This document shows, one piece after another, positions 43,501 to 64,000 of a DNA stretch of 64,000 nt (its first letter is position 1; each line of letters begins with the position of its first letter). The translations under genes and the position numbers were made by a program. The stretch is from an uncultured Gammaproteobacteria bacterium (GTDB lineage Bacteria; Patescibacteriota; Microgenomatia; Levybacterales; GWA1-39-11). The stretch spans positions 1,067 to 65,066 of the forward strand of contig CAYPEN010000002.1 of NCBI GenBank assembly GCA_964409875.1, read 5' to 3'. Under the pieces are notes generated by a model. The model saw nothing but the letters and a program-made list of their open reading frames with translations, was not told the origin of the DNA and ran no database searches.

Positions 43501-46500
43501 AACGATAACTATTGGAAATGGAACAAATACGACAGGTTTAACGCTTGGGAAAGCAGGTACAACGACGACTTTTAATGCTACGTCATGGACGGCTACTCCA
43601 ACTATCTCAGGTTTAGTTACCGGCACTCTCGGTTTTTCTGTTGCAGCTGGCCAATCGTATACTGGAGCAGGAGCTGTTACACTTTCTTCTGCTTCAAATA
43701 ATGACCTTACTGTTACCGCTCAAGGGTCCGGAAACACTATTATCACAAGCGATTTTGACACAGGAGTTCGGATTGGGGCATCCACAAATACACCGGCTGC
43801 TCTTTCGGTATCAGGAGGCATCGGATCTAACGCTGGATTTATCCTAAATAGAGTTGGGACAACTGATGATATTTTTGCGGCTAGTTCAGCAGGCACAACA
43901 AAATTTGTTATCAAAAACGATGGGACTGCTTCTTCATCAGCAGGATTTACTATAAATGGAGCCGGTAACATCCAGTCAACCAGAAATCAAACCCTTACCC
44001 TTGGCGGGAACTCAACAGGCACAATTCTGCTTCAACCCAACAATGGCTCGGGAAATGTTGGGATAAATAATTCAAATCCTTTCTCAGCGTTATCTGTTGA
44101 TGGTAATATTGAACTTGGCACAGGAGTTACAACAAGACAACTTACCGCATATAATTCTACTCGCACCAACCACGGCACCCTCGAATTATATAATTTAGCA
44201 ACCGGCAGCCTCACCCTCTCAACTGATTTTTCAACAGGAAATATAGTGCTCACACCGGGAGCATCGGGAAGCATTCAAATGACCAATTTCACCTCAAACG
44301 GTGGGCTACTCTACACAAATGGCTCGGGAGTCCTTTCCCAAGTGACAGCAGGTTCTACCTCCCAGTGTCTTTTTGGAGGCACAACACCTTCATTTAATAA
44401 CTGCGCGGCCGGATTTGGCTCTCCGTTCCGTGAATTCAGCGGAGCAATTGTACAACTTAACACAACCGAGGATTTTCTAGCCGGTGGCCAAGCATCAACC
44501 TCAGCAACATTCAAAGTTACCGGCCAGGGAAATCCTTTTGCAGGAACATTGGTTGGTGCCTCAATATCGGCAAACACTTCATTTGCAGGATTTGTGGTAG
44601 ACAACAAAGGCGTGGGTGATATATTTACTGCTTCCTCATCCGGAGTTCCACAGTTTGTGATAAAAAATAATGGAAATGTCGGAATCGGACTTGGAACGGG
44701 TACGGCAGGCATTCCTACTGCCAAGCTTGACGTGAACGGTACAGCTTCTATTTCTTCTGCACTTACATTCAGAACAGGAACTGGAAGTATCCAGACAACG
44801 GCAAACAACACGCTGACACTAGGTGGAGGGACAACTGGAAACCTAATCGTGGGCCGTACATCTCAAGTAATTACACTCCCCGGCTTTGACTGTTCAGCCC
44901 AGACAAATGGAGGGAAATTAACAACAACTACAGGAGGAATTCTGGCTTGTTCTGCTGATACATCAGGGGTATCCGGATTCGCCTCTCCATTCAGAGAATC
45001 AAGCAACCCAGCAGGTTCAATTTTTGCTCTCAACTCAACCGAGGATATCCTTCTCGGCGGGCCGTCATCAACTTCGGCGGCACTCCGAATAATCGGCCAG
45101 GAAAATCCCTTTAAAGGAACTCTTGCTGCTGCAACAATAAGCGCCAATACCTCGTTTGCAGGATTTGTGGTAGATAACAAAGGCGTTGGAGACCTATTCA
45201 CAGCTTCTTCTTCGGGTGTGACTCAGTTCCAAATTAAAAATGGCGGGGCTGTTGGAATTGGCGCCATTGCCGCAAATAGGCCAACTGCCATGCTTGATGT
45301 AGTAGGCACTGCTTCTATATCGTCGCAACTAGCTTTTAGGACAGGTGCTGGCAGTATCCAGACAACCGCTATGAACCCACTTACCATTGGGGGCTCAACA
45401 ACCGGAAATGTATCTATAAAATCCTCTAATACTACTGTCTTTCAAGCTCCGGGTACTGCAAACATATTCGTTGGAGCAGATGCAGGCCGCATAAATTCAA
45501 GCGGATCTCATAATTCTTTCTTTGGATATCAAACCGGATATAATAACACTACCGGAAGCTTCAATTTCTTCTTAGGAGATTCTGCAGGATTTGCTAACAT
45601 AGGGGGATCCAATAATTCATTTATTGGCCTTCAGGCAGGAGTTGCAAACCAATCTGGCGGCAATAACTTGTTTTTAGGAAATTCGTCAGGAGCAACAAAT
45701 ATTTCTGGTAGCTCTAATACATTTGTCGGAGAAAGTTCAGGGTTTTCTAATACCGCAAGCTTCAATACATTTATAGGTAACAGTGCAGGCTATTCTAACG
45801 GAGCCGGTACAGGAAATGTATTTATTGGCTATCTAGCAGGAGATACTTCAAATAATGCTAACGCTAACCTTACAGGAAATAATAATACATTTATTGGTTA
45901 CCAGTCAGGCCCGGCTACTACAACGCAACTTACAAATGCGACAGCGTTAGGCTATCAAGCACTTGTTTCCTCCTCTAATTCTCTCATTTTGGGTGGCACA
46001 GGTGCAAATGCAGTTAAGGCAGGAATTGGAACACAATCACCCACAGGTGTTCTTGATATTCAGGGGGGATTTATGGGTGGGAATGCTGCTCTAATTATCA
46101 ATCAAACAGGTTCATCAAATAATAATATCCTTACAGCATCATCGTCTGGCATCACAAAATTTGTAGTTGGCAATGATGGTCAAGTACTATTCGGCAACGC
46201 AGCAGCAGACCCGAGTACGGCGCTTGGAGCCGGCTCAGTCTACTATAACTCAGGGAGCCAGGCCTTGAAATTCTACAACGGCTCAACTTGGTCAACTATC
46301 GGTTCAGGCAACTCATCGAGCCCCTTCAAAGAAGCGTTGGGAGCAATACTGCAAAATCAACCGACCGAAGACTTTTTGCTGGGCGGAAATGCAACCTCAT
46401 CCGCAGACTTTGCGGTACTTAACCTTAATTCAGGCACACCCACCGCATCGGTCTCAGCTACCGCTACGGGCAAAGGACTTTCGCTCGCCGGGGACGGAAC

Positions 46501-48760
46501 TATTCAGGCCCTGCGGTACAACACCCTTACTATCGGAGGAAATACCACCGGCGATATTGCATTTACACCTGGCAATATTACTGCCAAAAACGGTCTTTAT
46601 CTCTCCTCAAACGGAAATGTCAGCATCGGTAACATTAATGCACCACAGAATACGCTATTACCTAATCCTAAATTCCAAATATTTGGTTCCATTGGCCACG
46701 CACCCGTTGCTTCAATTTCTGCTCAACCAACTGCAGTTGCGCCTACTTTGCTTCTAACAGTAGACGGAACCAACGACGTTTTTGTAGCAAGTAAATCCGG
46801 TCAACCTATATTTAGAATTGATAGTTCCGGTGCAGTTCATGCTGGAGGAAATTACTCCAATGATTATGGGGCTGACGTTGCCGAGTATTACCGAAAAGCT
46901 AACCCTAACGAACAATTCCAACCTGGCCAATTAGTGTGTCTTACCGGTACAGACGTAACTAAATGTTCCAGTAACAACCCGCAGCAAAAAATCGTAGGGG
47001 TAATTTCTGACCGGGCAATGCTTGTCGGATTTGGAAAATACAGCAACGACCCTAATTATGTGCTTGTAGGTATGGTTGGTCAACTTGGGGTATGGACCAC
47101 CGGTGACATAAAAGCAGGTGACCCCCTAACACTCTCCACGACACCGGGCGTTGCCACCATTGCAAAAGGCGAAGGGAACATAATTGGTTATGCCCGCGAG
47201 GATAACAACAACCAGTTGAAGAGAATAGAATCTGTAATTCAACCCAACTATTTCAATCCGAATACTGCTCTTCAAACTGACAACGTATTCAATTCATTGA
47301 CGCTTAGTATACAAAATGGCGTTTATAATGTTTTTGATGCATTTGGGAATAGTATAAATCACATTGATGCATTCTCAAAAGCACTCATCGGCAACCTGAC
47401 TGCAGGATTTGCCAGCATTCAAACCCTAGTTGTAAATACATTTACTGCCACTACTTCGTCTCTTGGGAATGCAACTGCTTCTACATTCGCCGTTGCTGCC
47501 AACACTATAACGATAGGAGGACAGGATATCCGGCAATTTATAATTGATACCGTCAGAAATGCCGGGTTTGGACAAAATACACTTACCACCCCGTTGGCCA
47601 CTGGAGCTATAGAAACCAACGTTATTTCCCCCCTTGCTGACAACAGCACGGTTCAATTGAATGTGAACAAGGATAATGTTGAGGTTAAAAATACAGATAC
47701 CGGTAAAACAGTAGCCTGGTTCAATAATCAAGGAAATGCAACCCTTAGCGGACAGTTAACATCAGAAGGCGTACAAACAACCAATGCCACAGTTTCTGGA
47801 ACGCTCGCAGCCAACTCCATAACTACTACAGATGCATCAGTATCAGGTACGATAACAGCCAATACGATAGTAGCCACTAACATTTCAGGGCTTGACCAAA
47901 AACTTGCTACTCTTGCAGCTGCCCTTCAAAACAACAATTCAGCCTCGAATTCAAGTCAAGTTAACAACAATTATCTTGCATCTGACACTATACATGCCAA
48001 CTTCGGCATTTTTGAGCAAGGAATAACCTCAATGGGTCCTGTCACCTCAAATATCATAACAGCGACAGACCAACTTGCCGTAGGCAATAGCTTTACAATC
48101 ACCAACAACTCTATCAATACGGTAGGAGCGGATTTGCAAATCCAGTCTTTGAGGCAAGGCAATATCGCATTTGAGGGAGGGCTCATTAAAATGGATACTG
48201 ACGGAAATATGTTGGTGAGCGGCAATTTGAATCTGCTGGGAGAGATCGACGCCGTCCATGGCGTATTCTCAGGAACGCTCACCGCACCAGCTTTAGCAAC
48301 CGGCCTTATTTCTCCTCTTCCCGGAGATGATTTGGACATAAAGCTATCAGATTCGGCATCAACCTCAGGACGGCTTAAAATTGTAAATCAGCAAAATCAA
48401 GAGGTTCTCTCAATTAATAGCCATGGGGATCTTAATGCCTCAGGAAGCGGAACTTTTGCAAAGCTGAATTTCAATCTGGTCGGCAAAGCCGAAGCAACTT
48501 CCTTGACCGAGGCGGTTGCAACGGGAAGTGCCGGATTTGCAACGTTAAGACAAGGACAAGTGGAGCTTACTATCAAAAACCCAATCATCACCTCAAAATC
48601 GCTCATTTATATAACGCCATATGGCGATACCAACAACAAAGTCATCTATCTTTTGAGACAGGTTCCTCAATCTGAGGTTGATGACGGCTCATTCACTGTC
48701 GGCATTTCAGGTACTCCCGCCCCTGCCGACATCCAGTTCAACTGGCTCATCGTTAATTAG
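37583..48760 (+). CDS. giant membrane protein (3725 aa): two N-terminal integrase-type SAM-like domains, one TM, long beta-helix/tail-fibre-like repeat ectodomain
   Basis: Single uninterrupted ORF. TM segment near aa 375 (YSFVHYVHFALLVIFASGVGVALY). Repeat units of about 350 aa (…NGSGVLSQT…QCLLG…WGSCG…). C-terminal tail-fibre-like F-x-G repeats. Confidence 0.85.
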   Translation: MDILELFKEQLLKDRSTSSKSTLKNYLSDVRHFISWFEKSTHSTFEVKDITPDVIVLYEQSLGGLIEDAKLNVATQLSAASMKRHLSSLRKFFALLEREGHISHNPFTQIQPEASEVPTDLWHLKSFKDALLLQKASKITVKNYLSDISGFAKWYEETILPGLEKPLSATGGFYLLTQEIIEDYRKRLLEVQNAAPRTVNRKLSALRRYLNFVTEKGFVSLNELSIDPVRVFEERMTSVESPSVELTELPVVTKKEKTHSKFPPVRLLQKLVIFPYLALEEKAATSIATFISGKPLNGLDKLPPKLASIVEAKNVLRGKTNSISNILGVRNVSKEFYAPDKVSLLGTPLYKRLIYHAKFTRPNWYKRYHNYSFVHYVHFALLVIFASGVGVALYQNLVAKKQAPTFAAATAPPRIISFQGRLTDNLDNPITSTSALRFAIYNDASASGGALLWQEAITNITPDQDGIFSILLGGGTQIPSTVFTDNSQIYLGVTVGTTSELSPRQRIASVGYATNSEFLQGQPPTTQAGITSFTNVILALDSSGNLTLADSATTNHTFQVSNGAFNLKGQTLYLTTNSGSGGNVILSPDGLGKIDIQRPIINTTTMGNIVPGGVEVNDKFGVLATESAVAAFTVNNNTSGGDILAASSSGTTRFKIANDGTLTDGVYNTAGGIFYGSNTNGTFAQTTAGSLGQCLQSTAGGAPTWSTCGGSDWRTNLGTLSPNNDTLDLLVGGNTTASAKFRFVNVNTGTPVASVSANSGNNSTFISGDGTLGTTNRATLTIGNSSTYNTTGNLLFNPNGIGRIGIGTTSPLIGFDLRGNSGTTAAASISANTSFATLLVDNSGSGDLIAASASGVPNFVVKNNGDVIIGQGGAGKLTASVIDPYLVQNQKTTGTQSLTFQTMGATNADFIFKNTSTTLSTLTQAGQLQLPVTGSTGGIVIGGDTQIFRGAADRLDVASGDSFNVVNGNLQIGGTTVIDSSRNGTFQTLNITGGCTGCTVGAPSPFQALSGAIVPLNGTLDLLVGSQATTSAKFSVLNISNGTPTASVSATSTGAGLSIAGDGTLQGTLNNNIVIGGNTTGAIQFKPNNSSVSMFLSGANVAIGNQTPQASLDVSQNSHLSAAVDKIIFGSIGNTIGVLGYDGAANDEIRIGAQSNKGLELLTNNTTQAYITNTGNFGIGSTSPTAKLDVNGTASVSGAFKIYGTPTIQSTSNQTLTLGGDTTGDIQLKPGNATNPTVYFATGGNVGINISTPTNLLTINQGSNTTTNTIASYGFNLFNQGVTNFTIGSDASYAYLQSWASKPLQINNQGNNVLLNINTGLVGIGTTAPVAKLQINGGNEGGNSAFIVNQTGVSTNDIFAASASGTTKFTIKNDGTASSSAGFTINGTGALQSTKNQTLTIGGNSTGAIVLSPNNGAGTLQFTNFTTNGGILYTNTAGVLSQTAGGTGTQCLLGNLSWGSCGTGTTSTPFYESLGAIVPFQGSEDFLIGAQATTSAKFAVLNVNNGTPTASVSSGLNGTSAYFDANGNFRTANKMSLTLGGGNTGNITIQGNNTLYLIDQAINLSAINPTLSANGSSTLTLNNNSTGNIQFFSSSNTLTNAGALTIAGSATINGGTVQLANGAQGTIQTASNADIVITAGSGTINLNTVSNGPVLTGSGLTTLGGGLTVNGATTTFGNAAPLITTGTNTDLTITPNGTGNLIITSDFNTGVRIGSSSNTPALLSVSGGIGSNAGFILNRVGATDDIFAASSSGTTKFVIKNDGTASTSGNLVLDGTGSLQTTKNQTLTIGGTSTGNIVLSPNNGSGNIRFSNFSTNNGLLYTNGSGVLSQTGAGGALQCLLGDLTWGSCGTGTSRTPFQELLGAVVQNNTTEDFLAGGQASTSAVLKVTGQGNPFAGTLVGASISANTSFAGFLADNKGVGDLFTASSSGVTQFVIRNNGAVGIGTNVPGAMLDVNGNLLLGANSTIDARASGTITIGNGTNTTGLTLGKAGTTTTFNATSWTATPTISGLVTGTLGFSVAAGQSYTGAGAVTLSSASNNDLTVTAQGSGNTIITSDFDTGVRIGASTNTPAALSVSGGIGSNAGFILNRVGTTDDIFAASSAGTTKFVIKNDGTASSSAGFTINGAGNIQSTRNQTLTLGGNSTGTILLQPNNGSGNVGINNSNPFSALSVDGNIELGTGVTTRQLTAYNSTRTNHGTLELYNLATGSLTLSTDFSTGNIVLTPGASGSIQMTNFTSNGGLLYTNGSGVLSQVTAGSTSQCLFGGTTPSFNNCAAGFGSPFREFSGAIVQLNTTEDFLAGGQASTSATFKVTGQGNPFAGTLVGASISANTSFAGFVVDNKGVGDIFTASSSGVPQFVIKNNGNVGIGLGTGTAGIPTAKLDVNGTASISSALTFRTGTGSIQTTANNTLTLGGGTTGNLIVGRTSQVITLPGFDCSAQTNGGKLTTTTGGILACSADTSGVSGFASPFRESSNPAGSIFALNSTEDILLGGPSSTSAALRIIGQENPFKGTLAAATISANTSFAGFVVDNKGVGDLFTASSSGVTQFQIKNGGAVGIGAIAANRPTAMLDVVGTASISSQLAFRTGAGSIQTTAMNPLTIGGSTTGNVSIKSSNTTVFQAPGTANIFVGADAGRINSSGSHNSFFGYQTGYNNTTGSFNFFLGDSAGFANIGGSNNSFIGLQAGVANQSGGNNLFLGNSSGATNISGSSNTFVGESSGFSNTASFNTFIGNSAGYSNGAGTGNVFIGYLAGDTSNNANANLTGNNNTFIGYQSGPATTTQLTNATALGYQALVSSSNSLILGGTGANAVKAGIGTQSPTGVLDIQGGFMGGNAALIINQTGSSNNNILTASSSGITKFVVGNDGQVLFGNAAADPSTALGAGSVYYNSGSQALKFYNGSTWSTIGSGNSSSPFKEALGAILQNQPTEDFLLGGNATSSADFAVLNLNSGTPTASVSATATGKGLSLAGDGTIQALRYNTLTIGGNTTGDIAFTPGNITAKNGLYLSSNGNVSIGNINAPQNTLLPNPKFQIFGSIGHAPVASISAQPTAVAPTLLLTVDGTNDVFVASKSGQPIFRIDSSGAVHAGGNYSNDYGADVAEYYRKANPNEQFQPGQLVCLTGTDVTKCSSNNPQQKIVGVISDRAMLVGFGKYSNDPNYVLVGMVGQLGVWTTGDIKAGDPLTLSTTPGVATIAKGEGNIIGYAREDNNNQLKRIESVIQPNYFNPNTALQTDNVFNSLTLSIQNGVYNVFDAFGNSINHIDAFSKALIGNLTAGFASIQTLVVNTFTATTSSLGNATASTFAVAANTITIGGQDIRQFIIDTVRNAGFGQNTLTTPLATGAIETNVISPLADNSTVQLNVNKDNVEVKNTDTGKTVAWFNNQGNATLSGQLTSEGVQTTNATVSGTLAANSITTTDASVSGTITANTIVATNISGLDQKLATLAAALQNNNSASNSSQVNNNYLASDTIHANFGIFEQGITSMGPVTSNIITATDQLAVGNSFTITNNSINTVGADLQIQSLRQGNIAFEGGLIKMDTDGNMLVSGNLNLLGEIDAVHGVFSGTLTAPALATGLISPLPGDDLDIKLSDSASTSGRLKIVNQQNQEVLSINSHGDLNASGSGTFAKLNFNLVGKAEATSLTEAVATGSAGFATLRQGQVELTIKNPIITSKSLIYITPYGDTNNKVIYLLRQVPQSEVDDGSFTVGISGTPAPADIQFNWLIVN

Positions 48761-52992: not shown

Positions 52993-53772
52993 ATGAGCAC
53001 AAAATTTTTGACGGCTGTAGCTTTACTTGTATTAATCGGTGTAATCGGTGTAACAGTGTATTTATATATACTCAATCATTCAAGTTCAAAACAAACAGAA
53101 AATAATACTGTTCAAACACAGATCACTGACAAAGTACGTGATACGGCTATTCATATATGCGACAAAAAAGTATATACCTCACTTAATGAAGCTCTCAAAA
53201 ATCCGGAAAAAGTCTGTACACTCGACCTCTCAGGCCAAAAGCTGGCAACGCTTCCTTCAGGAATTTCAAAACTAACAAATTTAGAGTCACTTTATATAGG
53301 AAATAACCAGCTGAAAGAATTACCTGGTGAAATATTTCAGCTTAAGCTTTTAGTAAGACTAGATGCACCAGGCAATCAAGTTCAATTTATTCCAAGTGAA
53401 ATTGAAAATCTTACCAATCTTCAAATCCTTAACCTTAATAATAACCAAATTTTGATTGTACCAAAGCAGATTGGGAATCTTAAAAATTTAACAGACCTTC
53501 TCCTGGGAAATAATTCCCGTCAATTATCAGCAAATGTAAATTCTAAAGATGATGTTCCGCATCAAAAATTAAGTCAACTGCCTGATGAGATTAAAAACCT
53601 TACCAGTCTTTCAAATTTGGTCCTAATTAACGATGGGTTTGATAATGCTGAAAAAATGAGAATAAAGCAGCTAATGGGAAGGCCGGGTGTTGTTCATTTT
53701 GATACCCTTACTACAATTGAGTCAGAAATTATTCCCTCTGCATCACCTACGGCGGGTCCGACAAATAAGTAA
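52993..53772 (+). CDS. N-anchored leucine-rich-repeat protein
   Basis: Repeated LxxLxxLxLxxNxL units (LTNLESLYIGNNQLKELP...). Confidence 0.7.
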   Translation: MSTKFLTAVALLVLIGVIGVTVYLYILNHSSSKQTENNTVQTQITDKVRDTAIHICDKKVYTSLNEALKNPEKVCTLDLSGQKLATLPSGISKLTNLESLYIGNNQLKELPGEIFQLKLLVRLDAPGNQVQFIPSEIENLTNLQILNLNNNQILIVPKQIGNLKNLTDLLLGNNSRQLSANVNSKDDVPHQKLSQLPDEIKNLTSLSNLVLINDGFDNAEKMRIKQLMGRPGVVHFDTLTTIESEIIPSASPTAGPTNK

Positions 53773-53953: not shown

Positions 53954-56900
53954 TTAATAGCACCCTAGTGGACCTTGCGGCGACAGGCACACAACACCTG
54001 AACCCATACACATATCTCCGCTCAAAGCACACGATGCATTTCCATTTATTGCAGTTTGTCCACAGGACACTGTTGTCGCAGTCGTCGATGAACAACTAGT
54101 GTTACCAGCTGACGAACAGAACGCTGAACCACAACAACCTACGTAATTCGGGGGAGGGCCGCAATCGTAACCTACACATTGGCTGGTCTGAACAATTGCA
54201 GCACAAACATATCCAGAAAATTGACCATTTGCGCTCGTACCTAAGTAACTTGTCATAGAATTACTGCAATTGTAGTCAAAGCTCCCATCTCCTCTGTTTG
54301 TAGTCTGGTAGCTTCCACTGTATCCTGGGTTGGCAGTTGCATTGCCATCGTAACAATCAAGGCCAGATGAAGTTGCTCGATACCCTGAAGGAAGTGAAGC
54401 ACCTGAGCATACATTTGAAGGTGTTGTGCTCGTTGTGTACCCATCACCGTCAGAATCCTGATACCCACTCAAATTCTGCCATTTTGTCGCGTCGCTATCA
54501 TTACAATCGGTACCCGGACTTGAATTAAATCCCGCAGGCAAAGCGCCTCCAGAACAAACAGGCGTAGCGGAATTTCCAACTACCCCGTCCTTGTCCCCAT
54601 CAACATAGGCATTTAAATTTTGGTATAAATTTATATTATTGTCATTACAATCGTTAGCATTCATAGACCATGGACCTGTGGGAGTATTATTGGCTACGCA
54701 AAGTGTTGTCGTTGCATAATTTGACCTAAGTCCGAATATAATTACACCTCCATATCCGGAAGACGACAAAGTTGCGCTTTTTACGCCTGTTGGACCTGCA
54801 CTATTCTGCATAACATCTGATATTGATACCATTCTTCCTCCTGTATTATTTGTATCCGCCCTCTCTGTCATGCCTGCAGGTGGCGTCCAAGAAGCTAACC
54901 CTGAACTTCTATATGCACCCGCAACCACAACAATCAATTCATAAGGGTATGATGTAGTTATTCCGGAAGAAGTTTGAAAAGCTGTTTGGAGAGAGTTATT
55001 ATTCCCAATTACAGTCACCTGAGAAGTATCAACTGGACTTGAGGAATTCACATTATCATATGCAACAATGTTACCTGCAAATGCCGTTACATTAGGACTT
55101 GCACTCCATGTATATGATGCAGGTTCTCCTCCTACTGCTACTTTATAGTAAACCGCAGTAGAAGACACTGTGGGCGAATTGTTGTCTACACGGTTTATCA
55201 AATTCCAACCTGCTGGAGGGGTTAATACTATGCTCGAACCACCAAAGGTAATGGATGCGATCAAAACAACTCCACTATCTACTCCTGCTGCAGGATTGTT
55301 AATAGTGACACTTGCCGTGGAGCCTGTATTATATCCTGTGCCTGCTGCACTTCCCTTAAATTGTATTGTTGAACTTGCTCCATTATGATCACCGTCGTTG
55401 TCGGCATACACAGTCGTATTTACGCAGCTTGAGGGGGTTGTGACATACGATGTTGCGGATGCTGTACCTGCACCTGCTGCATTTTTGGCCTTAACTGCAT
55501 ATCCATAAGTAGTGGTTTGCGAGACGGTGTTGTCAGTATAAGAAGTCAAAGCAGTGCTTGTTAATGTTGCAGAAGGTGAACATGATCCGTTTGTGCAGCG
55601 CAATAAATCATATCCATTGGTTATCGACGGCACTGCACCGCCTGTCTGAGTTCCACTCCAACTAATTGAGGTCTGGTTATAGGCAGGAGCCGAAACATTC
55701 ACTGTCGTTGGTGCGCAAGGCGTGCCATTAGAATCGTCCTGACAGTCGGTTGCCCCGCTTCCTAATGCGCTTCCCGCATCCATATATGTATATGCGCCTG
55801 GAGTAGCGCTCGTGGTAAAAGGCAAAACCGCCGTGTCGTACCGTGTACCATTTGCATTTGTTGCCATAACACAGAAGTAATAGGTTTGATTTGCCGAAAG
55901 GCTAGGCAATGTTGCTTGTGTCGTGGCACCGGATAAATTTGATGTCCCAGTTAGCCCTGTTGGCCCGGCAAGCGTATTCGGCTGGAGGTTACATGCAACG
56001 CCGGGCGTAGTTCCCCACAGATAGCTGATGCTGGTGCTTGCACCATTTGGATTTACTGTTGAGTTAAGTATTGCCGAATTCGTCGTAAGACTGCTCGCCG
56101 CACTTGTTGTAACAGTTGGCGCTGCAGGGGGCGTACTCCATACCATTGCATAAAGGCCGGTACATCGTTCAGTCGATGAGGTACTACCATTTAAAACACC
56201 TATTTCGATTGCATCAAGAGTCGCTGTTGTCCAACCAGACCCATTATTTGGATTTGTGTCATTGAGTTTAGCTAAAGATGCATAGGCTCCTATACCAGGA
56301 TCACTAGAAGTTGTATCACTATTAGTGATACCTGGAGAATTTGTCCGTAAACGGACTATAGTACCAGGAGAACTACCAGCTTCTGTTTTGCATATAGTTA
56401 ATGTTTTAACTGTTCCAATTCCATTAGATACTCCAGCAGTCGAACTGCTGTCGACAGTAAATGTAGATACATTTCCAGCTGTGTTTGCATCGCGGATATA
56501 GGTAGTATCTCCATTTGGCGGCACTTCATTAACCTGATTATACGCTGTTCCTGTTCCAGTTCCCCATAATTGAGCAAAACCAGCTCCTTTCGGCTTTAAA
56601 ATATTTACCTGCCCCGCCCCGGGATAAGCAGAATCGCTTATTGCAACATCGTCATAGTACCAATTGGCTGTATATGAATTTATCGGATCACCTAGAACAA
56701 GTTGATCCTGTGTGTAATTATAAGATGTCCATGTTTGAGGAGTCCCACCATCCACTTTGGCTTCACTTAGTCCGTTAGAAACGATTTTTGCCTCAATTCT
56801 ATACCATGTACCAGCGTTAAGAGTGGCTATATTTGCAGAGAAGCCGCTAGCACCAAATCCTGTTAGTACACCGGAAGAATTCACATAGAGACTTGCTATA

Positions 56901-57280
56901 TTGTTACTACCAGAATCTCTCCATGCAGAAATAAGCAAATTGCTTCCAGGCAAACTTCCCATATAGAAATAAAAGGTATAATACGTGGCAGCTGTGCGCC
57001 CTAAGAATGCACCATTACCATTGGTTGCTAAACCACGAATGGTAACGCCTCCATTTGTTCCACTAGGATTTATGCGAAGTGCATAATTTCCAGTACGCTT
57101 AGTTAATGACTGAATAGAATAAGTTCCATTTGTACTATATAATTCGGAAGAATCACCTGTCTCAAATCCAGTTATATTTAAATAAGCAGCTTCGGATTTT
57201 TGAACGAAGGCGAAACCACTGAAAATAACCAACAGCAAGCTAGCAAGTACTATTTTGTTAATAAATCCTATTTTTTTCAT
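53954..57280 (-). CDS. large secreted adhesin-like protein (1108 aa) with MopE-type metal-binding motifs and Cys-rich C-terminus
   Basis: Signal peptide MKKIGFINKIVLASLLLVIFSGFAFVQKSEA. D-x-D-x-D-G motifs. Shares a domain with the 978-aa protein. Confidence 0.7.
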   Translation of the reverse strand: MKKIGFINKIVLASLLLVIFSGFAFVQKSEAAYLNITGFETGDSSELYSTNGTYSIQSLTKRTGNYALRINPSGTNGGVTIRGLATNGNGAFLGRTAATYYTFYFYMGSLPGSNLLISAWRDSGSNNIASLYVNSSGVLTGFGASGFSANIATLNAGTWYRIEAKIVSNGLSEAKVDGGTPQTWTSYNYTQDQLVLGDPINSYTANWYYDDVAISDSAYPGAGQVNILKPKGAGFAQLWGTGTGTAYNQVNEVPPNGDTTYIRDANTAGNVSTFTVDSSSTAGVSNGIGTVKTLTICKTEAGSSPGTIVRLRTNSPGITNSDTTSSDPGIGAYASLAKLNDTNPNNGSGWTTATLDAIEIGVLNGSTSSTERCTGLYAMVWSTPPAAPTVTTSAASSLTTNSAILNSTVNPNGASTSISYLWGTTPGVACNLQPNTLAGPTGLTGTSNLSGATTQATLPSLSANQTYYFCVMATNANGTRYDTAVLPFTTSATPGAYTYMDAGSALGSGATDCQDDSNGTPCAPTTVNVSAPAYNQTSISWSGTQTGGAVPSITNGYDLLRCTNGSCSPSATLTSTALTSYTDNTVSQTTTYGYAVKAKNAAGAGTASATSYVTTPSSCVNTTVYADNDGDHNGASSTIQFKGSAAGTGYNTGSTASVTINNPAAGVDSGVVLIASITFGGSSIVLTPPAGWNLINRVDNNSPTVSSTAVYYKVAVGGEPASYTWSASPNVTAFAGNIVAYDNVNSSSPVDTSQVTVIGNNNSLQTAFQTSSGITTSYPYELIVVVAGAYRSSGLASWTPPAGMTERADTNNTGGRMVSISDVMQNSAGPTGVKSATLSSSGYGGVIIFGLRSNYATTTLCVANNTPTGPWSMNANDCNDNNINLYQNLNAYVDGDKDGVVGNSATPVCSGGALPAGFNSSPGTDCNDSDATKWQNLSGYQDSDGDGYTTSTTPSNVCSGASLPSGYRATSSGLDCYDGNATANPGYSGSYQTTNRGDGSFDYNCSNSMTSYLGTSANGQFSGYVCAAIVQTSQCVGYDCGPPPNYVGCCGSAFCSSAGNTSCSSTTATTVSCGQTAINGNASCALSGDMCMGSGVVCLSPQGPLGCY

Positions 57281-57296
57281 TGTTTCGTTTCACTCC

Positions 57297-57319
57297 GTGA
57301 CAGGGTTGGACCCTGTCAC
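57297..57319. repeat. REP-like palindrome gtgacagggttggaccctgtcac overlapping a stop codon
   Basis: Same core as 51265-51289. Sits between the small anchored gene and the 1108-aa gene. Confidence 0.5.
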
Positions 57320-57711
57320 TTCACTACCACCTTTCCTTTATGGCCTGCTTCATCTACATATGTATATGTACCATCCTTTTCAAACAGGCTTGTTGCAATA
57401 TCATGCCCATTGAAGACAAACTCCTTGGAGTATTGCACCTCACCCTCCCACTTCAAAAGCACTTTTTTATCCAGTGGGTTGGTGAAGCGCACTAACATTC
57501 CTTTTGAAATGACGATTTCTTTTGGCGAAAAACCTGACGGCAACACCCGCACAACTGCAAAGCTCGGCTCTTTGGTGGGAGTTGGCCCTGTCATAGAAGT
57601 ACTGGTGCTTTTTCCACCCTTTTTAGGCGAGAGAAAACCAAATCCCAGCGCAACAAGACCGATAAGTACGGCGACTCCTATAAGTAATAATGCTACTCGT
57701 TTTGTTTCCAT
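57316..57711 (-). CDS. small N-anchored beta-rich protein (family member 1 of 4; cupredoxin-like fold suspected, no Cu ligand set)
   Basis: N-terminal TM followed by a beta-rich domain of about 100 aa ending GKVVVK. Confidence 0.6.
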   Translation of the reverse strand: METKRVALLLIGVAVLIGLVALGFGFLSPKKGGKSTSTSMTGPTPTKEPSFAVVRVLPSGFSPKEIVISKGMLVRFTNPLDKKVLLKWEGEVQYSKEFVFNGHDIATSLFEKDGTYTYVDEAGHKGKVVVK

Positions 57712-57751
57712 ATTCTCTTAACTTTCCCTTTAAACTTCCAACTTCTATCAC

Positions 57752-60580
57752 CTAATTCGGCCCGCTTCCATCGTTATAGTACGTTCGTCCATTAAAGACT
57801 GCTGAGGCTCCGACGCATTGAGGTCCGGCGGCTGTCGCAGTTTTATATCCATCATTATCAGCGTCTCTAACCATATTGGGCAATGTTCTATATGCATAAG
57901 CAGAATTATTATTACAGTCATATGTAGCGCTGGCTGAAGCTATCTTCCACGAGTAATTAAATACGCTGCTTATTGTGTTCCTCCTGATAAATTCAGTAGC
58001 GGCCGAAGGAGTTGAGCCCACATATTGAATTGTGTCATCAAGATAATTATCACGGTCTTTGTCATGAACAAATACTCCACCCGCAGCAAGAGTACCTCCC
58101 CGAGCAACAGCAAGTATCGCTCCTCTTCCTAGCGAAACGGAACCAAACGCAACTTTTTGACCCGCAGTAATAGAAAGTCTTGCTCCGGCGGGAATGGTAA
58201 GCTGTGCGGTATTTCTTGTTCCTGTGCCTGAATCTACTCCACCGATTGTTCCTGTGAAATTACAAACAGCGCCTGCCGGAATAGTCATGTTACCAGCTGA
58301 GGGCGCATCACATGGACCTGAAGGGCCGTCAGGAGTTGTAAATGAAATTACACCGCTGGTTCCTCCACTCGTAGCCCCTGTTGTGTAGTTAACCGAGCTA
58401 ACCGTGTTCACTGCATATGCACAGTAATAATATGTGGTGTTAGGATATAACCAGGTGCTTGCATTAAAAGGAATCTGATAGTTAAAGTTCACCGGCGAAC
58501 TTCCACTCCCCAAATCTATATCAGGGAAGTTACCGGACCCTTCCGGATACCGAATACCACCCGTATCGGATGTTGCAGCACAGCTAGCAGGTGCGCTGGT
58601 AAATACCCTAAAATGACCGTTGGTTGGGTAACCATTCGGGTTAGCTGACCCTTTCAAATTCACATAATACGATTGGGGGGCATCATTGCTAACGGTGGTT
58701 ACAGATGTCGGCGCAGGATTTAGCGTTGAAAATGTGCCAAGCGTATAAGCTGTACCATAAGAATTGGTTGCATACGCATTAAATGAATAGGCAGTATTGG
58801 GTTGTAAATTACTAATATTTACTGTAAATACTCCGGTTGTCGTCGCCCCTTGTGGAGTACAGGTTACACCCGAACCAACCAATTGTGGGTTATTGTTAGT
58901 AGATGTAACTGCATAGCAAATACCTCTTGCTGTTAACGATGAGCCTCCAATTGATGTAACGTTGCCACCAAGTGTAGCCGATGAAACCGTGACTGAGGCA
59001 CTAGTAGGCGAAGTTATTGTTGCAACACCTGCAGTCGTTGAAAAGGTATCATCTGTGGAATATGTAGTCCCAAATGCATTTGTAGCATAAGACCTGAAGT
59101 GGTAAAGAGTACTTGGACTTAAATTGTTGAATGTAACTGTGTAGCCCCCAGTAGTTCCAGTAGCTGTTAAGCAATTTCCACCTATAGAAGGGTTAGCGCC
59201 AGTGCCAACACAAACTCCACGACTAGTTATTGTTGAACCCCCATCATTATTTACATAACCGACCAAAGTTGCGCCTGTAGCCGAAATACCACTAACACTT
59301 TGTATTGTTACAGTAATACGATAATGGTCAATGCTATATGTATAAGAACCACTACCAACAATATTTGACTCCTGTACTCTCATTCCGAACGTGGCACTAT
59401 TGATATCGGTTGGTGTGAAAGTTGTTCCCCAGAGATCTGAAGATGATCCGGCAGACCCATATTGCATAGTTGTGTTGATGCTAATATATCTTCCATTACT
59501 GTTAGTACATCCATAACTACCACCTGAGGTTTGATTCGCACAAGTGGAAAGGAATGTATACCAGCTGTCAGTTCCCGACGAAACAGAGCTTTTAGCTTCA
59601 GCCTTTATCCCCAGAATTGAAGCGCTTACTGGTATATTAAATCCAAAACCATAACCCCACAAAAGACTCGTATATCTACCATAAAGAGAACCGTCCAAAA
59701 CTGAAGTTGCATATTGACCGTCTGCTGTATTTGCATATGAAGGATTGGTCCAGGGTTTTGAATATGCATCATAATTATCAGACCAAACAGTTGTTGGATT
59801 CATTGGACCAACATCAATTGTCCCGTTTGTTCCACTTGTGTTACTCATTGTCGGCGCTAAGGGTTGGGTTCGAAGAGCAATTGTAACAACACCTGCTGTT
59901 GCAGTTTCAGATACAGTGGAAGTAAATGATCCTGTCGTTCCAATAGAAGCCTGAGCAATATCAAACATTGCAGTACTTCTACACGATGCGTTATTTGTTG
60001 AAGCTCGTGAGGAAGTACCCGTTGGCGTTGTCCACGTATCACCCAGACAACCCGAAGAATAACCATTATAGAAAAGCAGAACCATATCATTTGCAACAGT
60101 TGTTGTTAGAGCAGTTGTTGCGTGAGTGGTGGAAGTTGCTTGACCTGCAATCGTATGCACATCAATTGGAGTGGAGTTGTTAACTCCCGAATAGGCAACA
60201 ACTCCGGCAGACCAACAGAGACCGCTTCCATAGCTATTAGTCCACGTATAGCTTGCAGGTTCAGATGATACAACTCTGTAATATGTATAAACATTTAGGC
60301 CGTTTGTTGCATCATTTAAATTATCGATAAGAGTCCATCCTGTAGGCGTAGTCCAAGTACCTGAAGTGCCTGAATAGATGTTGGCTATCATAACATCCCC
60401 GTTTTGCACTCCTGCAGGCACATTAATAACAGCATTGGTGGGAGAACAAGCACTACCACTATTAGCAGTTGATGCTGCTCTAAACGTTATTGCAGCCTCA
60501 ACTCTTGTTGGCTTACTTAATAATAACGCAAATATTACCAAACTAAATCCAGACAATAATAATAATTTTTTAAATTTCAT
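57752..60580 (-). CDS. large secreted adhesin-like protein (about 942 aa) with Fn3-like repeats and MopE-type motifs
   Basis: Start at MKFKKLLLLSGFSLVIFALLL (signal peptide). Shares the domain P.GW.LI...YY.V...EPASYTW with the 1108-aa protein. Confidence 0.7.
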   Translation of the reverse strand: MKFKKLLLLSGFSLVIFALLLSKPTRVEAAITFRAASTANSGSACSPTNAVINVPAGVQNGDVMIANIYSGTSGTWTTPTGWTLIDNLNDATNGLNVYTYYRVVSSEPASYTWTNSYGSGLCWSAGVVAYSGVNNSTPIDVHTIAGQATSTTHATTALTTTVANDMVLLFYNGYSSGCLGDTWTTPTGTSSRASTNNASCRSTAMFDIAQASIGTTGSFTSTVSETATAGVVTIALRTQPLAPTMSNTSGTNGTIDVGPMNPTTVWSDNYDAYSKPWTNPSYANTADGQYATSVLDGSLYGRYTSLLWGYGFGFNIPVSASILGIKAEAKSSVSSGTDSWYTFLSTCANQTSGGSYGCTNSNGRYISINTTMQYGSAGSSSDLWGTTFTPTDINSATFGMRVQESNIVGSGSYTYSIDHYRITVTIQSVSGISATGATLVGYVNNDGGSTITSRGVCVGTGANPSIGGNCLTATGTTGGYTVTFNNLSPSTLYHFRSYATNAFGTTYSTDDTFSTTAGVATITSPTSASVTVSSATLGGNVTSIGGSSLTARGICYAVTSTNNNPQLVGSGVTCTPQGATTTGVFTVNISNLQPNTAYSFNAYATNSYGTAYTLGTFSTLNPAPTSVTTVSNDAPQSYYVNLKGSANPNGYPTNGHFRVFTSAPASCAATSDTGGIRYPEGSGNFPDIDLGSGSSPVNFNYQIPFNASTWLYPNTTYYYCAYAVNTVSSVNYTTGATSGGTSGVISFTTPDGPSGPCDAPSAGNMTIPAGAVCNFTGTIGGVDSGTGTRNTAQLTIPAGARLSITAGQKVAFGSVSLGRGAILAVARGGTLAAGGVFVHDKDRDNYLDDTIQYVGSTPSAATEFIRRNTISSVFNYSWKIASASATYDCNNNSAYAYRTLPNMVRDADNDGYKTATAAGPQCVGASAVFNGRTYYNDGSGPN

Positions 60581-60581
60581 T

Positions 60582-60998
60582 TTATTTAATAGTAATTGAA
60601 ACCTTATTATTCGTATCGTTAGATAACCAAGAAGTAAATTCGCCTGATTTACCAAACACTTGCGTATTAGTGGTTTTTCCGGGCCCAACTGTTATATCAG
60701 AACTCATAAGCCCACTTGTTTTTATCGTAACCTCTTTTGCAGTATTATTTTTGACTATTAATGCATTACCTACCTTCACCTCTATCGTATGTGGAGATAG
60801 ACCATCTGATGTCACAAAAAGTGTTCCAGATGGTACTGGTATGGCTGTTGGATTTATTGCTGTATTTTTCATAGATGTAGTTGGCTTTTGAGTTAGAACT
60901 TCGATTTTTGTTTGAGATTTCGACTTAAAGAGAATAATAATACCAAAAAGAACAATTAATCCCATACCTAATATAATTACTATCACTTTTCTATTCAT
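60582..60998 (-). CDS. small N-anchored beta-rich protein (family member 2 of 4)
   Basis: N-terminal TM, beta-rich domain, C-terminus VSITIK. Confidence 0.6.
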   Translation of the reverse strand: MNRKVIVIILGMGLIVLFGIIILFKSKSQTKIEVLTQKPTTSMKNTAINPTAIPVPSGTLFVTSDGLSPHTIEVKVGNALIVKNNTAKEVTIKTSGLMSSDITVGPGKTTNTQVFGKSGEFTSWLSNDTNNKVSITIK

Positions 60999-60999
60999 A

Positions 61000-62028
61000 T
61001 TACCTATTTATTCTAATGGACGATGTTGATGTATTTCCCAGACTATCTGTTCCTATCAAATCATACCCATACGTTCTGTTATAGGTATCCGTAACCTGCC
61101 AAGTTCCCGACCACGTTCCGCTCTGAGCAGTCCCTCCGCTTCGGGACAACGTAAATTCTCTCGCGTCGCCATCCGAGTATAATACTGCTTTAATTGAAGT
61201 AATATTTCCAACAGAATCATCTGCTTGCACTCTAATCGATTGCGCCTGGCCAATCGACTGGTATAACGGCATAATTGTTGCACTATATATATCAGGATTG
61301 GTACTTGCAGGATTCCCAAAGTCATAGGTAACAGAGCCTACAGGAGGAGTCGGGGTTGGAGTTGGGGTTGAGGACGGCAATGGAGTCGGTGTTGCGGTAG
61401 GATTGATGGTTTCTATTCCTCCGCCGCCAATTGAAGGCCCTGCAGCAAGTGCGTCACAATTGACAGCTCCTGACAATGTACATGCCCATGTGGCACCTGA
61501 GTAACCGGCAGGAACACAATTTGAAAGGGATGAAAGCGGACAAATATTGGTAAGCGCAGAGGACTTACTTACCTGCGCAAATACCACATTCCATTGAGGA
61601 CAGGCAGCTGATGTATCGGTACGATACTTATAACACGTCCCGCTGCCTCCATTACATTTCGGGTCCTGAGGAACCTTCTTCATATATACAGTGTTATTCA
61701 CCCTCCACTCGTTACCGAAAGGAATTTGCTGTGGGTAACATTTTTTATCACCATAGTAAAGATCCAAAGCGGTCTTAACCTGCTTCAAATCGGCAACTCT
61801 TTGAGCGTCTTGGCTTTTATTCAGCTGTCCTACGGGGTTGATGGTCAAAAGAATGCCGCCGATAAGTGTCGCAAGAATTGTTGCGGCAACAAGCACTTCA
61901 ATAAGAGTAAAACCTTCTTTAGAAGACAATAGACAATAGACACTAGACACTAGATTTTTTTTATTCAATCTTCTGTCTTCTCTCTTCTGTCTTTTGACTA
62001 ATATATTCTGTTGGGCAGATAATTTCAT
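61000..62028 (-). CDS. large type IV pilin/pseudopilin (class III signal peptide)
   Basis: KEGFTLIEVLVAATIL prepilin motif. The true start may be an internal GTG near 61950. About 290-aa C-terminal globular part. Confidence 0.75.
   Translation of the reverse strand: MKLSAQQNILVKRQKREDRRLNKKNLVSSVYCLLSSKEGFTLIEVLVAATILATLIGGILLTINPVGQLNKSQDAQRVADLKQVKTALDLYYGDKKCYPQQIPFGNEWRVNNTVYMKKVPQDPKCNGGSGTCYKYRTDTSAACPQWNVVFAQVSKSSALTNICPLSSLSNCVPAGYSGATWACTLSGAVNCDALAAGPSIGGGGIETINPTATPTPLPSSTPTPTPTPPVGSVTYDFGNPASTNPDIYSATIMPLYQSIGQAQSIRVQADDSVGNITSIKAVLYSDGDAREFTLSRSGGTAQSGTWSGTWQVTDTYNRTYGYDLIGTDSLGNTSTSSIRINR
61925..61992. repeat. Heptanucleotide tandem repeats (ACAATAG x2, ACACTAG x2; TCTTCTG/TCTTCTC x3) in the 5' end or leader of the pilin gene
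   Basis: Read directly from the sequence. The unit length is not a multiple of 3. Confidence 0.55.
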
Positions 62029-62532
62029 TTATTTAATAACTACAATTCCCGTCATTGACGGTTTTTCTTTACTTTTGTAGGTGAATGTGCCTGATGTATT
62101 AAAGGTTACTTGCTTGTATTCCCCGGGTGCAATTGCTCCTAAATTAAGTACAGCGCTGTTTGCATCATTTGCCTCGATAGTAATAGGGTCTGCGTCGATA
62201 TTAAGGAATTGAATGTAACCGCCTTTTGGAATGGTAACTGGAGAAGGATTAAACCTTCTCGAATTTAACATGACCGTTGAATTTTCTATTGGTGGAATTG
62301 TCGGATACGGGGTGAGGTTGACCTTTTTTGTAGGCTCGTTGGATGTGGAAGGGATATTGTTGTCAACGACGTTTTCTTTCCCTTTCCCAAAAAGCAAAAT
62401 TATTGAGAGCACCAGGAAAATAACAATTCCCCCCACTAAAATGCCCATGATTATTTTTTCGTTTTTGTTCATGGCGCGAGTAAGCTCATTTGAGATATAT
62501 CCTGCTTCTTTTGACTTGACTCTTTTTGGCAT
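62029..62532 (-). CDS. small N-anchored beta-rich protein (family member 3 of 4)
   Basis: N-terminal TM. C-terminus GTFTYKSKEKPSMTGIVVIK. Confidence 0.6.
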   Translation of the reverse strand: MPKRVKSKEAGYISNELTRAMNKNEKIIMGILVGGIVIFLVLSIILLFGKGKENVVDNNIPSTSNEPTKKVNLTPYPTIPPIENSTVMLNSRRFNPSPVTIPKGGYIQFLNIDADPITIEANDANSAVLNLGAIAPGEYKQVTFNTSGTFTYKSKEKPSMTGIVVIK

Positions 62533-62835
62533 ATCAATTTGTATAACTTTTTTATCTGTCGCAAATTGTAAGAAAAGGCCGACCTGCCAAAACTAAGCCA
62601 ACCGGAAGCTGCAACACTCCCTACCCAACGCACTACTGCATTGTGTAGTTTTAGTATATGTACCTTTTTTTTCCGTTGTCAAGAGAAGAAAACACTCAAA
62701 ATATATTAAATATATTAATTTCTCTATTTAGAAACGAGCTATTTCTCATTTCTTTGTATAATTTACTATAAATATAGATATCAAAATATAAAACAAACTA
62801 TCAATTATTCTTGATATTTATATGATATCTATTTG

Positions 62836-63726
62836 TCATTTATACGGTATTTCAGTTGTAACAGTTATCCCCATGCTATCGGTCGCTTGAATCCGTAAAA
62901 AATATTGCTTATTTATCGTATCAGTTATATTCCATATGCCATACCACGTTCCATTTGTGTTTTCACCATCTACAAGATGCAACGGATACGTATTTACCTG
63001 TGTATCAGTTCTTACTGTTACATTGACAGAATTGATTGGATTTGTTGAACGCGCTTCGATTGAGAATCTTTGCAAGCCGCGTGCTGCAGGATATGGACTA
63101 ATATTACCTGCTGTAAAATAGGGGTCAGTATTCATTGCAACGGTAAAATTCCCACCGGTAGCTGGCGTAGGGATGGGAGTCGAGGAAATTGACGGAACTG
63201 TAGTTGGCGTCACTTTATCACCATACTTTAATGCGGACGCTTGCAGTGACTGACAATCTACATCTCCTGATAGTTGGCAGGCCCATGAAGAGTTGTAGCC
63301 TGATGGCGCACATTTGGATAAGCTTGATAATACACATGCATCTCCATTGCTTGGCTGCTTATCGAGCTTTGCAAATACGATTCCCCATTGAGGACATGCT
63401 TTTGTATCTGTATAATAACTAAAGGGTACGTTGTTAGGATCTTGGGGAACCTTTTTCATATAAACGGTATTATTTTCTTTCCACTCTCCCCCATTTGTAA
63501 GCACATCGGAAAAAGAAGAATTTTTTGAAGGAAAACACTTTTTATCAGAATAATAAAGATTGAGTGCCTTTTTTATTTCCCGGATACTCTCCTGTCTCAC
63601 CACATCCTTTGCTTTTGTTGTCTGCCTGAAAGGGTTGATGCCTATCAAAACTCCAGCCCCAAGCGTTGCAAGAATCGTAAGTGCTACCAAAATTTCAACA
63701 AGAGTAAAACCTTTGTTCTCTAGCAT
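62836..63726 (-). CDS. large type IV pilin (paralog of 61000..62028)
   Basis: MLENK|GFTLVEILVALTIL canonical prepilin leader and hydrophobic stalk. Shares NTVYMKKVPQDP...CPQW with the other pilin. Confidence 0.8.
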   Translation of the reverse strand: MLENKGFTLVEILVALTILATLGAGVLIGINPFRQTTKAKDVVRQESIREIKKALNLYYSDKKCFPSKNSSFSDVLTNGGEWKENNTVYMKKVPQDPNNVPFSYYTDTKACPQWGIVFAKLDKQPSNGDACVLSSLSKCAPSGYNSSWACQLSGDVDCQSLQASALKYGDKVTPTTVPSISSTPIPTPATGGNFTVAMNTDPYFTAGNISPYPAARGLQRFSIEARSTNPINSVNVTVRTDTQVNTYPLHLVDGENTNGTWYGIWNITDTINKQYFLRIQATDSMGITVTTEIPYK

Positions 63727-63780
63727 ATCTTCTTTCGATGCTACTCTTTTATGCATAGTATTGAAATGTTAGGCTAAGTA

Positions 63781-64000
63781 TTTGCCAATTACTGAATTAC
63801 TATCGTTCCTTTTTGCTCCGGTATTAATTTATTGTAGTAACTAAATTGTCCGGGGGTTGAAAACTTTATAGGACTGGATGTACTTCCCACCTCAATTTTC
63901 CCAATTTTTAGATCATTATTCGCTGGAGCTGATAATATATTTGGCTCTATATCTATCACCTTCTCTGAAAAATTAGCAAAATTGATATATGTACCTTTTT
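63781..64000 (-). CDS. small beta-rich protein (family member 4 of 4), C-terminal part only; truncated by window edge
   Basis: Translation ...GQFSYYNKLIPEQKGTIVIQ* aligns with the C-termini of the other three members. Confidence 0.5.

Follow-up and report, generated by a model that had tools for sequence, protein, structure and literature searches.

A cluster of eight tightly packed genes on the minus strand of a 64,000-nucleotide (nt) stretch of contig CAYPEN010000002.1 (here called the window) is organized as four pairs, in each of which a small gene is followed by a large one. The host is an uncultured ultra-small, Levybacteria-like bacterium of the candidate phyla radiation (CPR). The large genes encode two type IV pilins and two large secreted proteins, in the order small1-pilin1-small2-pilin2-small3-large1-small4-large2 (Table 1), and the small genes encode one family of membrane-anchored proteins with a cupredoxin domain. 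We tentatively favor the reading that the locus encodes surface proteins, namely, two bimodular type IV pilins and two Sec-secreted adhesin-like proteins, each with its own partner-specific, membrane-tethered small protein for docking or escort. The parts are of known kinds (a cupredoxin fold, modular pilins, multidomain adhesins); their systematic pairing is undescribed.

Eight genes form four small-large pairs

All eight open reading frames (ORFs) are on the minus strand at, or a few codons from, the positions given in the preliminary description of this DNA. To complete small1 and the ends of the locus, we turned to L001 (Logan SRR11845619), an assembly in which the same sequence extends further and the cluster comprises exactly eight genes. 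Opposite-strand genes for leucine-rich repeat (LRR) proteins flank it at both ends; the one that forms the boundary outside the window, seen in L001, encodes 236 amino acids (aa). The truncated small1 reads only in the frame ending at 63998, which gives ...GTIVIQ and a stop codon at 63789, and its complete product has 141 aa (P0042; L001 8319-8744). The start of pilin1 previously placed at 63726 is an internal methionine, and we revised it to 63756.

The genes are separated by 0 nt at the small2/pilin2 junction, where the small2 stop codon abuts the pilin2 ATG, by 1 nt at pilin2/small3 and small3/large1, and by 32 to 40 nt at small1/pilin1, large1/small4, and small4/large2. The sole wide gap in the cluster, 303 nt, lies ahead of small2. 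A candidate fifth module, a 116-aa ORF before a 1009-aa ORF at 29530-32559, was rejected: the large ORF encodes leucyl-tRNA synthetase (LeuRS), and the hidden Markov model (HMM) of the small-protein family matches only the four small genes in the window.

Small genes precede a constant type of partner

A profile search with the small-protein family returned 98 relatives (107 after iteration), which fall into 62 s2-like, 30 s4-like, 4 s3-like, and 2 s1-like proteins, each window paralog grouping with its own orthologs. Related loci were sampled by a scan with the s2 alignment, limited to one genome per species (8 loci), to which look-ups with single members added more, and by a metagenome scan with the s4 alignment, which gave 9 further loci. 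We counted pairs in 16 non-redundant loci using our own ORF calling, the family HMM, and a regular expression for prepilins. Each of the 35 small genes has a gene for a prepilin or large protein after it on the same strand (in two cases with one inserted gene between them), and the adjacency first noted in the window is thus conserved in related genomes. The type of partner follows the subfamily. A prepilin gene comes next after 3/3 s1-like and 13/13 s2-like genes (16/16 together), and a large protein gene comes directly after 6/6 s3-like and 11/13 s4-like genes (17/19). The two s4 exceptions have one inserted gene of 185 to 187 aa (NYN-like or Bro-N), followed by the large protein gene. In most loci, the stop codon of the small gene and the start codon of its partner abut or overlap by 4 nt.

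The same rule holds in 11 further loci of the clade (L020 to L030) wherever the neighbor is readable, with two kinds of variant: two small genes in tandem before a pilin or large protein gene, and recurrent NYN-like inserts. As an observation in its own right, a gene for an NYN/LabA-like protein of 181 to 188 aa is repeatedly inserted exactly between s4 and the large partner (L009 14952-15509, L023, L024, and L025), and L016 carries a Bro-N gene at the same site (10136-10699).

A second locus, L018, has at least four modules, in the order S-P-S-L-S-L-S-P (S, small; P, pilin; L, large). The s1-pilin pair is found at three different positions, upstream in the window and downstream in L018 but by itself in L014, and thus moves as a unit. 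Furthermore, small2 is the nearest and sole detectable paralog of small1 (E = 1e-5) and pilin2 is the nearest paralog of pilin1, which fits duplication of the pair as a unit.

By comparison of 22 large proteins, we assigned large1 to class A and large2 to class B. In four loci (L006, L007, L008, and L010), a class A part followed by a class B part forms one fused protein. All four lack s4, which precedes 9/9 stand-alone class B genes. Because a single polypeptide combines the two classes in four genomes, and s4 is confined to loci with a separate class B protein, both large proteins probably act as one complex; the fusion and split amount to a Rosetta-stone argument that they work together.

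The strict one-to-one pairing proposed at the outset is seen in the window. Across genomes it gives way to between zero and two small genes per partner and to one small protein of 221 aa with two cupredoxin-like domains (L004, L011, and L018). The reverse rule is not strict either: a large gene directly follows a pilin gene in L006, L008, and L010, and L009 has a 925-aa protein without a small gene. We searched for cupredoxin domains fused onto the large proteins where the small gene is absent and obtained no match at E ≤ 1. The ORFs of 124 to 128 aa before class A genes in L013 and L021, considered as a second small family, turned out to be truncated N-terminal fragments of the large protein (signal peptide plus half of the shared domain described below).

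The gene order could also reflect co-regulation of proteins that do not interact. The small proteins would then have an envelope role of their own, for instance, as wall or S-layer spacers or stalks, or in binding a ligand on the host surface, and the pairing would be synteny inherited within one clade. We consider this the main rival to a docking or escort role, and a serious if unlikely one. It draws on a series of observations that weigh against partnership. The loci with pairing all belong to one candidate phylum and are largely orthologous, so 35/35 does not represent 35 independent events, and inherited synteny is possible in part. The number of small genes per partner varies, as described above, and s3 is dispensable, class A genes occurring without it in L009, L013, and three of the four fusion loci. 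A remote family member from another Patescibacteria lineage (P0151, L019) is followed by RecG and not by a pilin or adhesin.

Two further points count against docking or escort. The N-terminal domains of orthologous large proteins vary by genome (Laminin_G_3, DUF2341, F5/8 type C, TLDc, or fn3), a pattern expected for adhesins; with such variation, any binding site for the small protein would have to lie in the conserved Fn3 or C-terminal parts. In addition, no prepilin peptidase, extension ATPase, or platform protein was found among the window ORFs scanned. On the other side, mere co-regulation does not readily account for the specificity for partner type in both pilins and large proteins, for an s1-pilin pair that moves as a unit, for the presence of s4 exactly where class B is a separate polypeptide, for abutting or overlapping stop and start codons, or for pairing that persists despite NYN-like and Bro-N insertions.

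The small proteins are cupredoxins that have lost the copper site

An AlphaFold2 model of small2, built from a 96-sequence alignment, has a disordered linker (aa 50 to 84) and an eight-stranded domain (aa 85 to 166) with a predicted local distance difference test score (pLDDT) of 96 to 99. In a Foldseek search of the PDB with this model, the top 50 matches were all cupredoxins (E = 1.6e-8 to 1e-6; target-normalized template modeling score, 0.65 to 0.79), including the Nitrosopumilus purple cupredoxin, plastocyanins, amicyanins, and a Bacillus anthracis Cupredoxin_1 protein. By sequence alone, the 96-sequence family profile matches plastocyanin 1bxu (E = 1.9e-8). Pfam Cupredoxin_1 scored 22.2, 18.4, and 12.4 bits on three of the window proteins, all under the cutoff of 27; the best of these was small3 (E = 1.5e-4). 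The domain is homologous to plastocyanin and amicyanin; a novel fold, one of the options raised at the outset, gives way to a cupredoxin without copper ligands.

Aligned with plastocyanin by HMMER, the family has other residues in place of the upstream His and of the Cys in the C-x2-H-x4-M loop. None of the 96 family members has a Cys in its last 95 aa. The position of the downstream His ligand holds His in only 23/96, with Gln or Met in most others, and the Met position is variable. In the s2 and s4 subfamilies, no His, Cys, or Met is invariant in the domain. An exhaustive library search with the family collected 15,290 proteins at E ≤ 1e-3, the top matches being actinobacterial proteins with 3 to 10 tandem cupredoxin domains that retain C..H..M. 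The window family is therefore a ligand-less offshoot of true cupredoxins.

With plastocyanin and amicyanin (PF00127) and Cupredoxin_1 (PF13473, e.g., B. anthracis 4hcf), the small proteins have in common the Greek-key beta-sandwich, and they keep F-x-P, an invariant Asn, G-T-Y-x-Y, and the final G-x-[IV]-V-V strand. The conserved end G-x-[IV]-V-[IV]-[KQ], recognized earlier from the four window proteins, is real and corresponds to this last strand. They differ from those families in having neither the Cys nor the upstream His, in not conserving the downstream His and Met positions, and in being carried on an N-terminal membrane helix and a Pro/Thr-rich stalk; their genes lie beside pilin and adhesin genes and not beside those of redox partners.

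It would follow from the homology in sequence and fold that the small proteins might be working metal or electron-transfer proteins whose position beside pilin and adhesin genes is incidental. Several relatives do carry the JGI name "plastocyanin" or a precomputed PF13473 match, s4 orthologs being among the PF13473 carriers. We regard such a role as very improbable: none of the 96 domains has a Cys, and neither His-ligand position conserves a His; the domain lacks copper ligands and is thus not expected to be a redox protein. The surroundings also contain no respiratory or redox genes. As a statement of function, the "plastocyanin" label given automatically to these genes is wrong.

Architecture of the small proteins

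Each small protein consists of an N-terminal membrane helix, a flexible Pro/Thr-rich stalk, and the cupredoxin domain. In small2, a basic N-terminal tail precedes the helix (aa 23 to 49), and the linker contains TPYPTIPP. The positive-inside rule suggests an N-in/C-out orientation. The initial view of the small proteins as a single family, each member having a membrane helix and a beta-rich domain, is borne out, since both the family profile and the fold unite them. They had also been called clear paralogs; paralogy stands, and the relationship is a distant one, with 22 to 27% pairwise identity and BLAST E values of 1e-5, 3e-4, and 0.55. Among the 22 invariant positions of s2, 11 fall within the 30-aa membrane segment and include G30xxxG34. 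This conservation could mean a helix-helix contact, for example with the N-terminal helix of the pilin.

As previously proposed, the small proteins are not minor pilins. None of the four has the prepilin motif G/F-x-x-x-E (a slash separates leader and mature part) directly before the hydrophobic helix, and none matches N_methyl. Only s2 carries a G-[FY]-I-S-x-[ED] motif, which is separated from the helix by about 10 polar residues and lost in four orthologs. This motif bears on the idea that the small proteins are noncanonical filament subunits or components of the pilus base (pseudopilin-like or PilN/PilO-type), with [EQ]-G-[FY]-[IL]-S-x-[ED] after the basic leader of s2 serving as a cryptic prepilin-like or PilM-binding signal. 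The start of small2, MPKRVKSKEAG/YISNE, does resemble G/FxxxE, the motif is kept in the longer s2 orthologs, and the bitopic architecture parallels that of PilN and PilO. We nevertheless find this idea improbable, given the polar spacer, the restriction of the motif to s2, and its being out of frame or lost in L003, L004, L011, and L018, whose proteins start MSKNEK. The disordered linker of about 35 aa between helix and domain leaves no pilin-like alpha1C packing, and four paralogs that are each tied to a structural gene are unlike a single alignment complex. As a general feature, a cryptic prepilin signal like that of small2 was rejected on the same grounds.

The pilins are bimodular

Both pilins carry a class III signal peptide, with KG/FTLVEILVALTILATL in pilin1 and EG/FTLIEVLVAATILATL in pilin2, a basic leader, Glu5, and a hydrophobic helix of about 20 aa. 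The leader of pilin1 reads MHKRVASKEDMLENKG/FTLVE and that of pilin2 ...SSKEG/FTLIE. Pfam N_methyl scored 28.4 bits for pilin1 and 26.1 bits for pilin2 (cutoff, 21.2), NCBIfam IV_pilin_GFxxxE/TIGR02532 was above its cutoff for the pilins, and pilin1 also exceeded the T2SSG cutoff (33.8 bits). The two are 41% identical over their whole length (E = 2e-72), in agreement with the initial assignment of canonical G/FTL[IV]E leaders and mutual paralogy.

In both pilins, a GspG-like pilin module and a Cys-containing region come first; a Pro/Thr-rich linker then leads to a beta module of about 110 aa at the C terminus, which has only weak Ig-like Pfam matches. This arrangement fits the "modular pilin" concept (PMC8179133). 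The best-conserved gene of the locus is pilin2, whose mature part is 92% identical to the L003 and L011 orthologs; against the same loci, identity is 77 to 79% for s2 and 73 to 74% for the C-terminal part of class A.

The large proteins share a beta-sandwich domain

Each large protein has a Sec signal peptide (..VEA/AITF in large1 and ..SEA/AYLN in large2). In large1, the N-terminal domain after it is jelly-roll-like and is followed by Fn3-like repeats; the C-terminal part, about 430 aa long, is conserved and shares 41 to 71% identity with the first large protein of 8 loci, and class A proteins, including large1, end in ...QCVGASAVFNGRTYYNDGSGPN. In large2, an Fn3-like region precedes an internal shared domain and a Cys-rich tail ending in ...GCY. 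Class B proteins in general have a conserved Fn3-like region (aa 388 to 620 of large2, 50 to 61% identical across the class) and a Cys-rich tail ending in C[YRH].

The domain shared by the two proteins covers about 210 aa (35% identity; E = 5e-23). Its predicted structure is a 12-strand beta sandwich (pLDDT, 94.5), and its sequence relatives are unannotated stand-alone proteins. The preliminary description had placed it at the N terminus of both proteins; it is indeed shared, and in large2 it is internal. The Fn3-like repeats reported there match at the Pfam threshold, with fn3 scores of 24.8 bits for large1 and 25.7 bits for large2 (cutoff, 25); scores of up to 74 bits occur among orthologous large proteins. 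The D-x-D-x-D-G motifs are present, once in large1 (DADNDG, aa 906) and twice in large2 (DGDKDG, aa 894; DSDGDG, aa 942), and neither protein matches Pfam Cu-binding_MopE at E ≤ 1. Of the Cys-rich tails attributed to both, only that of large2 is clear; this protein has 28 Cys in total. Neither protein has a hydrophobic segment at its C-terminal end (last 25 to 60 aa); a wall-sorting motif was not searched for.

Proposed roles and comparison with known systems

Docking or escort is inferred to be the most likely role of the small proteins. On the outer side of the membrane, the cupredoxin domain would bind the protein encoded by the next gene, and in s2 the conserved, GxxxG-containing membrane helix would perhaps bind the partner as well. 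The pilin-type partners (s1 and s2) may hold the bulky pilin, or present it, ahead of its entry into the pilus machinery, and the adhesin-type partners (s3 and s4) may tether secreted proteins that lack their own anchor, or help in their assembly.

In the literature that we searched, cupredoxin-like proteins were not linked with pilins or with CPR surface structures, and the source databases hold no names for the window proteins. The closest parallels to the pilins are PilB and PilC of Streptococcus sanguinis, modular (bimodular) type IV pilins of a monoderm bacterium (PMC8179133, PMC9934059). Like these, the window pilins have a class III signal peptide and an extra globular module C-terminal of the pilin module, and there is no outer membrane. 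In the window pilins, the extra module is neither of the vWA nor of the lectin type: the Pro/Thr linker leads to a beta domain of about 110 aa. No upstream cupredoxin-like partner for S. sanguinis-type modular pilins was found in the literature searched.

In fimU-pilVWXY1E minor-pilin/PilY1 (PilC) operons, as here, large Sec-secreted proteins with DxDxDG motifs are encoded beside pilin genes and could be presented by the pilus. The window differs in having no set of four minor pilins, only one pilin per pilin module, and small partners that are not pilins. The large proteins have no PilY1/PilC match in Pfam at E ≤ 1 or in NCBIfam at E ≤ 0.01. Our results thus agree with the initial judgment that the layout does not match fimU-pilVWXY1.

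The archaellum proteins FlaF and FlaG (ArlF and ArlG) are small monotopic beta-sandwich membrane proteins that link a type IV filament to the envelope. They appear similar in kind to the small proteins; the number of FlaF and FlaG genes is one per machine and does not follow the number of structural genes. PapD-type chaperones and the SipA/LepA proteins of sortase pili are noncatalytic beta-sandwich proteins or degenerate enzyme homologs encoded beside the subunit that they assist. The concept would be the same, but folds, secretion routes, and assembly chemistry differ, and the likeness is at most a functional analogy.

It is possible, though doubtful, that the type IV pilins and pilus-associated adhesins of CPR bacteria have dedicated partners of an unrecognized class, namely, copper-less, membrane-anchored cupredoxin-fold proteins, with one partner per exported subunit, subfamily-specific binding, and replacement of the covalent link where a fused adhesin has been split. 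If true, type IV filaments would have a new kind of accessory principle, and there would be a hint at how large adhesins are held by cells that lack both an outer membrane and sortase. CPR bacteria (Patescibacteria) are thought to live attached to hosts, and type IV pili are their best-supported attachment device. The locus offers a testable candidate, with a conserved small family, a recycled redox fold, and a gene coupled to each surface subunit.

Transcription signals and features of the locus

The best promoter-like site in the region is of the sigma-70 type and lies before small2. In 10 loci, the s2 gene is preceded by the conserved motif CTTGACA..(A)n..GTAC(A/C)TATACTAAA; the genes small2-pilin2-small3-large1, with their 0- to 1-nt junctions, sit behind a promoter conserved in the clade. 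The leader of this operon is 86% identical to that of L003 over 103 nt and folds modestly better than shuffled sequence (minimum free energy, −32.1 kcal/mol; z = −1.86). Its hairpin and the UUUUCUU that follows could act as an attenuator. No U-tract follows the hairpin at the small4/large2 junction.

Table 1. Features of the pilin-adhesin cluster and its surroundings (window coordinates)
Feature	Position	Strand	Description
small1 (s1 subfamily)	63789..64000, past window end	-	C-terminal 69 codons and stop in window; family HMM E = 1e-31
pilin1	62836-63756	-	306-aa prepilin
Promoter before small2	62653..62682	-	Sigma-70 type, TTGACA-N18-TATACT; 11/12 matches
5' leader of small2 operon	62533..62652	-	About 120 nt; relatively GC-rich; hairpin, then UUUUCUU
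small2 (s2 subfamily)	62029-62532	-	167 aa; AlphaFold model
pilin2	61000-62028	-	342-aa prepilin
small3 (s3 subfamily)	60582-60998	-	138 aa; membrane helix and cupredoxin-like domain; family HMM E = 1.6e-28
large1, class A	57752-60580	-	942 aa
Shared beta-sandwich domain, copy 1	59864..60490	-	TPxGW...EPASYTW; large1 aa 31-239
small4 (s4 subfamily)	57316-57711	-	131 aa; membrane helix and cupredoxin-like domain; family HMM E = 1e-37
Hairpin at small4/large2	57298..57318	-	TGACAGGG-TCCAA-CCCTGTCA; begins at small4 stop codon, 17 nt ahead of large2 ATG; sequence read directly
large2, class B	53954-57280	-	1108 aa
Shared beta-sandwich domain, copy 2	54719..55366	-	Internal to large2, aa 639-854
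LRR protein gene	52993..53772	+	259 aa, membrane-anchored; convergent; downstream boundary of cluster

In nearly all related loci, a gene for a membrane protein of about 720 aa with C-terminal tetratricopeptide repeats (TPRs) is divergent from the s2-pilin operon (L003 4769-6931, L006 to L011, L013, L016, and L018). In the window genome, an LRR gene and a PMT_2 glycosyltransferase gene (L001 5866-8231) stand in the place of this gene, and their products might modify the Pro/Thr-rich linkers. Several related adhesin loci have neighboring 23S_rRNA_IVP/bAvd-type genes (L011 597-965 and 13757-13900; L018 299-667; L020 4730-5098); proteins of this type are accessory proteins of diversity-generating retroelements.

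Other features of the window

A comEA gene (28823-29488) lies directly upstream of a split comEC on the minus strand (26635-28817), which comprises two ORFs, one with the Competence domain (27477-28817) and one with the metallo-beta-lactamase domain (26635-27480). The surface locus had been connected with these genes as a possible DNA-uptake machinery. We found mere co-residence: they are about 25 kb apart, with LeuRS, a 3725-aa ORF, a sulfatase, and other genes in between, and no pilus motor gene was found among the window ORFs scanned.

The LeuRS mentioned above (minus strand) has a Ser_hydrolase/alpha-beta-hydrolase domain inserted at about aa 253 to 416, ahead of the editing domain. The only Pfam matches of the 3725-aa ORF (37583-48760, plus strand) are phage-integrase SAM-like domains at its start; a 4445-aa protein in L011 (14063-18429) has the same N-terminal domains together with Kelch propellers.

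Positions 1 to 5600 of the window (and also about 8380 to 9470 and 14250 to 15700) have a GC content of 0.48 to 0.53, compared with about 0.40 elsewhere, and contain no ORF longer than 206 aa in any frame. Searches of the region from 1 to 5600 gave no match in Rfam, even with the threshold at E ≤ 0.01, and none in Pfam for seven of its ORFs; a 16S motif was likewise not found, and stop codon reassignment did not restore long ORFs. This region could consist of untranslated RNA genes or decayed genes. It contains repeats of 136 nt at 2709 and 4802 (92% identity), 84 nt at 1416 and 3075 (88%), and 28 to 33 nt at 1214, 2880, and 5035. The 136-nt repeat was considered as a template/variable pair of a diversity-generating retroelement and rejected, its mismatches not being adenine specific.

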